Shown here: positions 33,468 through 53,736 of the stretch, piece by piece
Layout of the letters: each line of letters starts with the position of its first letter
Position numbering within the stretch: position 1 is the first letter of the stretch
Assembly: GCA_029071325.1 (NCBI GenBank)
Contig: JAIEAP010000001.1
Coordinates: forward strand, 105,764 to 169,763
DNA length: 64,000 bases
Source of the DNA: Lachnospiraceae bacterium
GTDB lineage: Bacteria; Bacillota; Clostridia; Lachnospirales; Lachnospiraceae
Direction of reading: 5' to 3'
Position numbers and translations under genes: made by a program
Notes under the pieces: model-generated
The model's input: only the letters and a program-made list of their open reading frames with translations
What the model was told of the DNA's origin: nothing
Database searches by the model: none

Positions 33468-33497
33468 CAGACGGTATGAAGCCATAATATATATGAG

Positions 33498-34038
33498 AGG
33501 GGCTGTCGCGTAATTTCTCTTATCAGAATCACATCCATTTTCCGTGATTTCGCAGGCATAGCCAGGATATCTGCTCGCCTTGTGCTGAAATTCCAACTGC
33601 CACCGACGTATCATTTTCGATGATTTCTGTCTTATTAACGTTCGAACAATCCTTGGCGTCTGTCCGCCTGCTGAGGACATGCAATCTGCAGGTTTTGTGT
33701 TTCTCTTGATGGGCATTCTGATGTGACGTGCGGGCTGCGGACATTGTCTGAGCTCACAACTTATAAACCATCATATGTTTTGAGGCGAGTTATGGAAGCA
33801 GCCCGGTCATATCGACCACAGAAGAATGCCCATCTAGAGAAACTAGAAACCGAAGCCGCATGTCACTCAGCAGGCGGACACACACCATCGGATTGTCGAA
33901 GCATAAAAAGACAGAAAAAATATGATACGTCGGTGACAGCGGAATTTACACGCACCGGCTCAAGGATATCCCGTGTATGCCTGCAAATTCAAGAGAATGG
34001 ATTATGATTTTCATAAGAGTATTTACGCGACAGCCCCT
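33498..34038. repeat. Family A giant imperfect palindrome, copy A1 (541 bp; MITE-like)
   Basis: Termini aggggctgtcgcgtaatttctcttat / ataagagtatttacgcgacagcccct; arms of about 220 bp complementary along their length around a ~100-bp centre. Confidence 0.88.
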
Positions 34039-34040
34039 AT

Positions 34041-34069
34041 GCATATTATATAGGATATCAGACATACTA
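34041..34069 (+). promoter_or_regulatory. SigG-type forespore promoter
   Basis: GCATA-17 bp-CATACTA upstream of spoVAD. Confidence 0.8.
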
Positions 34070-34089
34070 ACACAAAAAGGAGTGATGAT

Positions 34090-37531: not shown

Positions 37532-37606
37532 TTATCCTCTCTTTCTCAAAAATTGTGTTATTCTCTCAATTTTAGCAAAAATATACGGGAACGTCAATTG
37601 TAAAAA

Positions 37607-38215
37607 CTTGTGTTTTGGCATTTTGCAGAGCAGATGCCGGAGAGACAGACACATCCTTCCTGTCATTGGATTCGTGCAATGTTCTCCGTGAGTTACAGCC
37701 CTGTGACAGATTGCATTGAACCGATGCGTGTAAATTTCGCTGCCGCTGGTATATCATAAGTTTGGTGTTCTTTTTTTGCTTCGACAATCTGCTGGCGTCT
37801 GTCCGTCTGCTGCGGACATGCGGCTTCGGTTTCTAGCTGCTCTAAGCGGGCATTCTTTAGTGGTCGATATGAGCAGACTGCTCCCATAACTCGCCTCTTA
37901 ACAATGACATATTTTAGGGTACGAGCTCAAACAATGTCCGCAGCCTGCACGTCACCTCAGAACGCCCGCTAAGAGCAGCACAAAACCTGCAGATTGCATG
38001 TCCGCATGCAGACGGACACATGCCTAAGATTGTTCGAACATAAAAAAGACAGCAATCATCATAAATGATATACCAGCGGCTGCTGAAATTTCAGCATAAG
38101 GTGAGCAGCAATCTGGTGCAGGGCTGTAACTCACGGAGAGCAGTGAATGAATTTTATAGCAGGAAGGATGTGTGTCTTCTTACGGCATCTATTCTGTAAA
38201 ATGTCGAAACGCAAG
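37607..38215. repeat. Family A giant imperfect palindrome, copy A2 (~609 bp; inverted relative to A1)
   Basis: Core homologous to A1; 20-bp perfect inner IR ctccgtgagttacagccctg (37684)/cagggctgtaactcacggag (ends 38138); outer arms pair out to about 37607/38215. Confidence 0.85.
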
Positions 38216-38332
38216 CTAAAAAATGTTGCACATGTAACTGAAAATGTGTTATTCTTCCAGTAAGGGCAATGGGGTCATATCTAAGGAGGACTCTGCCCTT
38301 TTTGTATTTACACTTTTCGAAGGAGAAACAAA

Positions 38333-45708: not shown

Positions 45709-45782
45709 TGGAAGCAATGGGGCTCGAACCCATGACCTCTCGCGTGTGAGGCGAACGCTCATCCCAGCTGAGCTATGCTTCC
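45709..45782 (-). tRNA. tRNA-Val (anticodon CAC)
   Basis: Minus strand GGAAGCA-TAGCTCAGCTGGGATGAGC-G-TTCGC-CTCACAC-GCGAG-AGGTC-ATGGGTTCGAGCCCCAT-TGCTTCC-A; CCA not encoded. Confidence 0.95.
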
Positions 45783-49346: not shown

Positions 49347-49362
49347 TGGTTTAGTATCGTAA

Positions 49363-49530
49363 AGATAGAGGTTGCGTGATGCAAGAGTAACAGGTTAGAT
49401 GCGGCAGGAGCAGGTGAAGACCGGTGAAAGGGCAGCACGCCGAAAGAACATTTCTGCTGCGGGAATGTATCTTGGGCATATATTCAATAGGTATATGACT
49501 GTCATCTGAAAGAAGATGGGGCGCTATCAC
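49363..49530 (+). ncRNA. Lysine riboswitch (L-box)
   Basis: AGAGGTTGC..AGTA..GAAAGG..GCCGAAA..TGGG..ACTGTC..GGGCGCT; terminator gccggcttc/gaggtcggc plus T run follows; upstream of dapA. Confidence 0.93.
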
Positions 49531-49653
49531 AAGAAACCAGTAAGTTTATCTGCGTGTTTTTTGCCGGCTTCATCTGAGGTCGGCTTTTTTACGCATAACG
49601 GAATGCGCGCAGTCACATATGATAACAAGGAAGAATGAATTGGAGGTAGCTGT

Positions 49654-53163: not shown

Positions 53164-53295
53164 AGAGATACGCTTCCTTTATGAATGGGTGAAATTTATT
53201 GCTGGTAATTACTACTCATGCAGAGTGTAACATTTTGGAAGGAAAATTGCAATTCTTGAATTTCTGTTTTTGGCAGAGGATATATAACGAAACAA

Positions 53296-53630
53296 AGGCG
53301 CATACCTGCTACTATTATAATTTCATAGTTCTCTCCGCGGGCTTGCAGGCATACGCCATATAGCCTTGAGCCGGTGCGTATAAATCCCGCTGTCGCCAGA
53401 GTATCATAGGTTTTCTGTTTTTTTTGTTTCGACAATCCGATAGTGTATGTCCGCTTGTCACGCGACATGCGGACATACACTAAGGATTGTTCGAACGTTA
53501 AAAAAACAGAAATCATCACAGATGATACTCGGCGACTGCTGGGATTTCAGCACAAGGCTTGCAGCTATATGGTGTATGCCTGCAAGCTGCGGAGAAAAAT
53601 GAATGATTTAAATGGTAGCAGTATGAGCCT
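53296..53630. repeat. Family A palindrome, copy A3 (335 bp; centre deleted)
   Basis: Arms homologous to A1/A2; termini aggcgcatacctgctact/ggtagcagtatgagcct; folds back at gtccgcttgtc-acgc-gacatgcggac. Confidence 0.82.
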
Positions 53631-53736
53631 GGTTAGTTATATATCCTCTGCAGAAAACCGAAATTCTGTCTGCAATGTTATGGTAACGGACAAAAGAAAA
53701 GCTTATAATAAAGTGTATCAGGGAGGTAATGTTTTT

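Follow-up and report, generated by a model that had tools for sequence, protein, structure and literature searches.

The giant imperfect palindromes dispersed through this Lachnospiraceae genome, here called family A, are in our judgment (at a probability of roughly three in four) non-autonomous fold-back transposons, or MITEs, that were moved in trans by the transposase of an insertion sequence (IS) of the IS4/IS701 superfamily. Family A belongs to a known general kind of element, the fold-back MITEs, among which it is new and unusually large; what had appeared to be a mystery RNA becomes a definable mobile-element system, composed of a trans-acting DDE transposase, terminal repeats and fold-back MITEs. 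Long copies carry 23 bp terminal inverted repeats, CTTGAGTTTCCGCATTTTGCAGA, that enclose a palindrome of ~560 bp with an asymmetric core. Terminal repeats and target duplications, together with the copy number, the missing coding capacity and the existence of internally deleted minis that keep both ends, identify the family as MITEs.

Family A in the window and across the genome

The window, the whole 64,000-nucleotide stretch of DNA analyzed here, corresponds to C1:105764-169763 of a 2.88 Mb assembly of 47 contigs and 47.6% G+C. It harbors three family A copies, A1, A2 and A3, whose palindrome limits were set by chaining self-reverse-complement BLAST hits (Table 1). All three giant imperfect palindromes of the preliminary description are real and lie at or near the places where it had put them, A2 with exactly the limits given; A3 was rightly located but reaches further out than described, to diverged terminal repeats, its left end being CTTGAATTTCTGTTTTTGGCAGA with five mismatches to the consensus (the end at C1 159018). 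A1 and A2 are homologous across ~480 nt at 79% identity. The element has a direction, because its central ~250 nt are not palindromic, and by this measure A1 is oriented opposite to A2 and A3. Within the core of A2, a covarying block, CTAGnnnnTCTA / AGAGnnnnCAC, accompanies a hypervariable apex of ~25 nt.

Table 1 Family A copies and associated features in the window (positions of the window unless noted)
Feature	Position	Strand	Remarks
Copy A1	33487-34051 (= C1:139250-139814)	-	Short subfamily; giant imperfect palindrome with complete conserved core
Promoter-like site TTGACG-17-TAAAAT	37569-37597	-	Directed toward the IMPDH gene; -35 box 9 nt outside the left end of A2
A2 target-site duplication, left copy	37600-37606	.	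GTAAAAA
Copy A2	37607-38215	+	Long form; complete 609 bp fold-back MITE
A2 left terminal inverted repeat	37607-37629	+	CTTGTGTTTTGGCATTTTGCAGA; 3 mismatches to the family consensus
A2 conserved asymmetric core	37780-38040	+	From alignments and identity profile
A2 right terminal inverted repeat	38193-38215	+	TCTGTAAAATGTCGAAACGCAAG; 4 mismatches to the consensus
A2 target-site duplication, right copy	38216-38222		CTAAAAA; 6/7 match to the left copy
Weaker promoter-like site TTGCAC/TGCACA-17-TATTCT	38226-38255	+	Directed toward the His_biosynth-family gene; 10-11 nt outside the right end of A2
Copy A3	~53255-53669	+	Internally deleted derivative without core; diverged terminal repeats kept

A search of the 2.88 Mb genome with nhmmer yielded 41 family A loci of 77-660 bp, all of them intergenic, and the repeat family first described from three copies is thus both real and considerably larger. 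Approximately 23 of the 41 loci are full-length copies (500-660 bp) with 75-86% identity to one another; the full palindrome measures 540-650 bp and contains a conserved asymmetric core of ~250 nt, which alignments define as GACATGCGGCTTCGGTTTCTAG ... CCTGCAGATTGCATGTCC around the hypervariable apex of ~25 nt. The arms vary from copy to copy and are complementary inside each copy. Pairwise identity ranges from 0.5-0.6 in the outer arms, the least conserved zone of the element, through 0.77-0.88 in the mid arms to 0.84-0.98 in the core, with a value of 0.54 at the apex. Departures from perfect symmetry are themselves conserved: GCTTCGACAATC faces GATTGTTCGAAC, there is a 6 nt insertion, and an internal loop of ~14x14 nt opposes CCGgTGCGTGTAAAT to ATTTCAGCAyAAGG. 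The conserved mismatches and the fixed internal loop reported earlier for the window copies are accordingly a property of the family, being kept in 12 of the 13 aligned copies.

Two subfamilies can be distinguished by their ends. The long form is bounded by CTTGAGTTTCCGCATTTTGCAGA / TCTGCAAAATGCGGAAACTCAAG, and the short form stops ~33 nt further in on both sides. Seven copies belong to the short subfamily, A1 among them, a membership that rests on ~80-86% identity over core and arms. They are devoid of the canonical terminal repeat and of a detectable target duplication, neither of which was found at the ends of A1. Because both hallmarks are absent, the spread of the short form is not explained by DDE transposition.

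Terminal repeats and a probable partner insertion sequence

The genome contains 44 ends within five mismatches of TCTGCAAAATGCGGAAACTCAAG, a count that excludes the seven short-form copies. Target duplications of long copies include GTCATACACC (10/10), CTATATCAA (9/9), GCAAATTG (8/8) and several that match at 7/8 positions. Among 18 paired ends, three show perfect duplications of 8-10 bp and nine more show near-perfect direct repeats of 6-8 nt, mostly flush with the element. The internally deleted minis (77-411 bp) retain both ends. An informal look revealed no conserved ORF in family A, and the apex is hypervariable with indels. The core exceeds the termini in conservation, which is unusual for a MITE. 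Other assemblies that contain the flanking genes are 99.9-100% identical and carry the same copies, with no empty site or presence/absence polymorphism among these near-identical assemblies.

In two long copies (C5:6138-6789 and C2:106039-106696) the palindrome runs 19-25 nt past the terminal repeats into copy-specific flanks, and the C5 copy has TTGACG in both flanks, as two divergent boxes. These flanking inverted repeats reflect either insertion into a pre-existing symmetric site, which is the simplest account, or outward growth of the palindrome. For several other copies, palindrome growth was considered as the origin of symmetric flanks and rejected, a direct target duplication being found instead.

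A terminal repeat of the CTTGAGTTTCCGCATTTTGCAGA type also bounds an IS of 1,552-1,572 bp in gut metagenomes, which encodes a transposase of 417 aa. Delimited by CTTGAGTTTCCGCAGTTTT and GCGGAAACTCAAG, the 1,572 bp form was found in metagenomes and in other taxa only. Its transposase matches DDE_Tnp_1 (PF01609) with 48.7 bits (cut-off 23, E=1e-12), and the IS4-type motif YFSRWKIEEYFRCKK, the YREK signature, is visible in the translation. The best NCBIfam score, 48.8 bits for NF033592, compares with a cut-off of 115, and the protein stays below the cut-offs of all NCBIfam IS4, IS701, IS1634 and IS1380 models; it is therefore filed only as a member of the IS4/IS701 superfamily. Related protein clusters number 3,935, mostly located on contigs of ~1.5-2 kb and named only "transposase". 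Judged by these sequence data, the partner of family A is an abundant, unclassified DDE insertion sequence common in gut Lachnospiraceae. A target duplication is visible in one of ten autonomous IS copies, a count to be read with the caveat that contigs across a multicopy 1.6 kb repeat are perhaps chimeric. Beyond the terminal repeat, family A resembles neither the IS nor other MITEs with the same ends, so the descent of family A from the IS is traced through the 18-23 bp ends only.

The partner resembles the IS4 family (IS10, IS50, IS231) in its DDE_Tnp_1 domain with the Y-2-R-3-E-6-K motif and in its organization as a single ORF in ~1.5 kb, and, as for IS231 with MIC231, its non-autonomous derivatives have the same ends as the IS. 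It differs from that family by a duplication of 8 bp in place of 9-13 bp and by scores below the curated models.

No homolog of the 417 aa transposase was detected in the family A genome by tblastn, and the one PF01609 match found there is marginal and apparently unrelated. Terminal repeats are absent from the contig ends of this genome, its small contigs encode no transposase, and between pairs of ends spaced by up to 8 kb there are only host genes (amylase, CotJB, CotJC), so that an autonomous copy was not found among them. The earlier statement that the window contains no coding partner is therefore correct, and extends to the whole assembly. Since the genome lacks a cognate transposase, a Y1/HUH transposase and terminal repeats at contig ends, the copies are best described as orphan MITEs. 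Multicopy segments longer than 600 bp were considered as IS candidates and rejected. The largest of them (C38:83473-85004, C19:6325-7856, C14:53251-54338, C4:47334-48458 and one on C27), ~94% identical and in several cases located at contig ends, encode N-terminal regions of LXG/Rhs-type polymorphic toxins.

In the mechanism that we propose, family A copies would have been mobilized in trans by the DDE transposase of the 1,572 bp IS, which has the same terminal repeat, and each insertion would have duplicated ~8 bp of target. The transposase would since have been lost from this genome, or was never there, leaving ~41 copies stranded. The suggestion made in the preliminary description, that the palindromes are substrates of a trans-acting transposase, comes close to the truth; it named a transposase or an HUH nuclease (REPIN/PATE-like), and the enzyme indicated here is of the DDE type.

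Outside this genome, no counterpart of the family A interior was found. BLAST searches with the core gave no match in 40 relatives, including 13 congeneric species; the exact core pattern returned one chance match among 185k species genomes and no match among metagenome or viral contigs, and plasmid and phage collections contained no match to the interior. Among 401 genomes of the bacterial family, the 23 nt end is essentially confined to the present one. The single exception, in another genus, is a 484 bp fold-back element (L026:1501-1985, genome G396) with the same terminal repeat and an unrelated interior. Its 8 bp duplication, ATTAAGAG, includes the stop codon of the upstream gene, and 13 nt past its right end there is a promoter-like site, TTGACT-17-TAGAAT. 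At least 120 metagenome contigs, mostly from human gut, contain exact matches to the first 18 nt of the 23 nt end. Metagenomic MITEs with these ends measure 83-247 bp, have duplications of 7-8 bp and are likewise whole-length hairpins. Since every MITE with this terminal repeat is a whole-length hairpin, that shape is linked to the way in which the elements arise or move.

Bacterial MITEs that fold as whole-length hairpins are known in ERIC/IRU, Correia/CREE, RUP and Nezha (Delihas review, PMC3184786). Like these, family A is non-coding, multicopy and intergenic, with terminal repeats and target duplications; it can be folded into one long stem-loop and has deletion derivatives. In contrast to them, at ~100-200 bp, family A elements are three to five times longer (540-650 bp), possess an asymmetric core of ~250 nt with higher conservation than the termini, have an interior restricted to one species, and are placed strictly in the proximity of promoters.

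Placement beside promoters

The promoter-proximal placement of the IS/MITE family is probably the most interesting result of this analysis. Promoters were called by consensus only, with fixed criteria for all counts. Many ends are followed by an outward-pointing TTGaca-17-TAtaaT site, the -35 box of which starts 9-13 nt from the end and 1-5 nt past the duplicated target, an A/T-rich stretch of 8 bp. In the family A genome, 12 of the 44 ends (27%) have such a promoter-like site, in every case at +9 to +13, compared with 0.4% of positions drawn at random and 1.3% of those drawn upstream of long ORFs. A -35 box at +8 to +14 was likewise present at 34% of 99 distinct metagenomic ends and at 0.5% of random positions. 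Where ends have TTG at +9 to +13 (n=42), 81% also have TAnnnT at a spacing of 16-18 nt; these sites are therefore whole promoters and not merely a TTGAC motif.

The autonomous IS displays the same arrangement on one side. Of ten independent insertions that were compared, nine have an outward promoter beside IRL, the IS end located upstream of the transposase gene, and there is essentially none at the opposite end. IRL sits 9-15 nt from the -35 box of an outward-pointing host promoter (metagenome contigs L157-L166, L140 and L066). At eight loci a gene was called on the IRL side, and seven of these eight genes read away from the IS.

In the window, A2 lies between two divergent genes, and 9-11 nt outside each of its ends there is a promoter-like site. 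At its outer end, A1 adjoins GCATA-17-CATACTA (34042-34070), a promoter of sigma-G type proposed earlier for spoVAD, and the short form, which has no terminal repeats, may also lie directly upstream of a promoter. Across the genome, the orientation bias of family A relative to neighboring genes is modest (tandem contexts, 14:7; long form, 13:4); in tandem contexts, the stop codon of the upstream gene is located ~0-20 nt from the other end of the element.

We infer from these positions that insertion favors the DNA immediately upstream of -35 boxes. The family would be targeted to A/T-rich 8 bp located 2-5 bp upstream of a sigma-70 type -35 box, with IRL as the promoter-adjacent end of the autonomous IS, and the adjacency may in part also reflect selection of insertions that are harmless or useful. 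The main alternative, which overlaps with the MITE explanation, regards the copies as domesticated cis-regulatory or insulator modules whose position beside promoters results from selection and not from targeting. The hairpin would then terminate or insulate upstream transcription, and the terminal repeat would act as an upstream promoter element or regulator site at approximately -47 to -70. The fixed distance between ends and promoters, the closeness of the upstream stop codon to the other end in tandem contexts, and a near-palindrome, TCTGCA-AAAT-GCrGA, within the terminal repeat are all in line with such a role, as is the age of the copies, which are old enough to differ by 15-25% and are still retained. 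However, the adjacency also holds for the autonomous IS, whose copies at 10 different sites are recent and identical, and does so in an orientation-specific manner, and therefore points to an insertion preference; moreover, selection acting on random insertions would hardly yield a distance spread of only ~5 nt. We thus regard domesticated modules as an unlikely cause of the placement, albeit the strongest of the alternatives. As to targeted MITEs, a more far-reaching proposal is that the IS and its fold-back MITEs home to 8 bp upstream of active sigma-70 -35 boxes in fixed orientation, with the MITE core selected for a function of its own, for instance as a regulator-binding or insulator module serving dozens of promoters. 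We put it forward tentatively, at distinctly less than even odds.

Insertion concentrated at a set distance from a transcription landmark or another harmless site is known from the eukaryotic elements Ty3, Ty1 and Tf1, from Tn7 at attTn7, and from IS1397/IS621 in REP sequences. These systems involve other enzymes and hosts, and by analogy the landmark would here be a sigma-70 type -35 box. A literature search returned no description of -35-proximal targeting by elements of this kind, and we know of no IS4 member that prefers -35-proximal targets. If the targeting is real, it represents a compact natural means of placing DNA beside promoters without disrupting them, by which, in abundant gut bacteria, a mobile element could rewire or insulate numerous promoters simultaneously. 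It also raises the question of how a DDE transposase finds DNA just upstream of a -35 box, and does so in one orientation.

Arm symmetry and the conserved core

Covariation was evaluated in 22 copies, using 160 base pairs predicted by RNAalifold on both strands. Watson-Crick combinations occupy 93.4% of cells; sliding the partner column by 1-3 lowers this value to 22-28%. Of the cells of the 107 variable pairs, 90.1% are paired, whereas column shuffles give 71.2 ± 0.6% (maximum 73%). In 80 pairs at least two Watson-Crick types were present, with 66 different copy partitions and 26 private to one copy. Spread over so many partitions, the compensatory pattern is therefore real and stems from many events, and the covarying arm segments initially noticed in the window copies reflect pervasive compensatory change that holds family-wide. 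Individual copies have 4-24 mismatches in the 160 pairs (mean ~6.5%), and differ from each other by 15-25%; most of the divergence therefore predates the individual insertions.

Could this complementarity be neutral? Arms might be kept alike by arm-to-arm gene conversion only, with core conservation merely a sign of young age; the preliminary description had itself named such conversion as one of the explanations that would refute its reading. Conversion is indeed seen in one copy (C36:240527-241314), where 61 nt of the right arm are the exact reverse complement of the left arm and the T bulge and 6 nt insertion found in all other copies are erased. DNA-level symmetrization by intra-element template switching therefore does occur. 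The strand-symmetric mismatch spectrum points in the same direction, as do the differences between two assemblies of this region, which are patchy variant swaps inside A1 only. Conversion creates no variation, however, and leaves unexplained why stems vary more than loops and core; it should also erase asymmetric loops and bulges, yet these are kept in 12 of 13 aligned copies, and the apex is saturated while the neighboring core is ~95% conserved. As loops and core are more conserved than stems and the asymmetries persist in nearly all copies, conversion alone is insufficient, and a purely neutral palindrome appears rather improbable.

For the complementarity of the arms we favor two DNA-level causes. 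The whole-length hairpin may derive from a fold-back origin, by duplication of one IS end, and/or from selection for a hairpin or cruciform that juxtaposes the ends for the transposase, and intra-element template switching would copy one arm onto the other. Purifying selection would have acted on core and internal loops in lineages that were still transposing. Candidates for the function of the core are a protein-binding or a regulatory module. Why all MITEs of the family are whole-length hairpins (fold-back origin, cruciform-assisted synapsis or template switching), and what the conserved asymmetric core is that was seen only in this species, are questions raised by these results.

The covarying arms had initially suggested that the copies are genes for a large structured ncRNA, with hairpin and core under RNA-level selection and the transposon ends merely a vehicle. 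A core identity of 0.84-0.98 beside a hypervariable apex, stems that vary and still pair, an inward-facing promoter-like site (CTGAAA-18-TATCAT) conserved in A1 and A2, and the modest bias of orientation with respect to the flanking genes (14:7 for tandem contexts) would all suit an RNA. Against it, the transition mismatches are strand-symmetric, with 72 G-U and 73 A-C in stems supported on both strands, whereas RNA-level selection should tolerate G-U on one strand only, and the RNAalifold energies of the two strands are alike (-241 vs -226). This symmetry therefore argues against RNA-level selection and is still compatible with a DNA hairpin. In addition, core-less derivatives such as A3 persist. 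Family A has no Rfam match at gathering or permissive thresholds: in the window, its copies match nothing at gathering score, and A2 at E<=5 gave only a chance match to MAT2A_D. The large-ncRNA reading thus finds no support, and we consider it very improbable.

REPIN/RAYT systems and IS200/IS605 PATEs share with family A the dispersed intergenic location, hairpin formation and mobilization in trans, and differ in having a Y1/HUH enzyme, short hairpins and no target duplication, where the long form of family A has terminal repeats and duplications in a genome without Y1. That family A serves an HUH/Y1 enzyme of this kind as its single-strand DNA hairpin substrate, as proposed at the outset and as the long hairpin with conserved bulges and the short subfamily without terminal repeats or target duplications (a trait of Y1-type elements) might suggest, is exceedingly improbable and largely refuted, since the 99.9% complete genome has no Y1/HUH or RAYT gene (0 matches to Y1_Tnp, PF01797, in a search in which controls respond), the terminal inverted repeats and 8-10 bp duplications of the long copies are not products of Y1 transposition, and the ends match a DDE-type IS.

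On the practical side, family A repeats break short-read assemblies, several contigs of the present one ending within copies, and they may create patchy consensus errors. A second assembly, ERZ14208451, is identical over 13.6 kb save for seven differences, all within a 25 nt stretch inside A1 (33865-33889). There, ACTCAGC is replaced by GCGTGAC and ATC by AAAA; both variants are known from other family copies, and the ERZ14208451 variant breaks the pairing with the opposite arm. These differences are due either to inter-copy gene conversion or to an artifact of read mismapping or polishing. Elsewhere in the window, Rfam matches comprise only a lysine riboswitch (49358-49534, plus strand, 114 bits) and a tRNA gene (45709-45782, minus strand).
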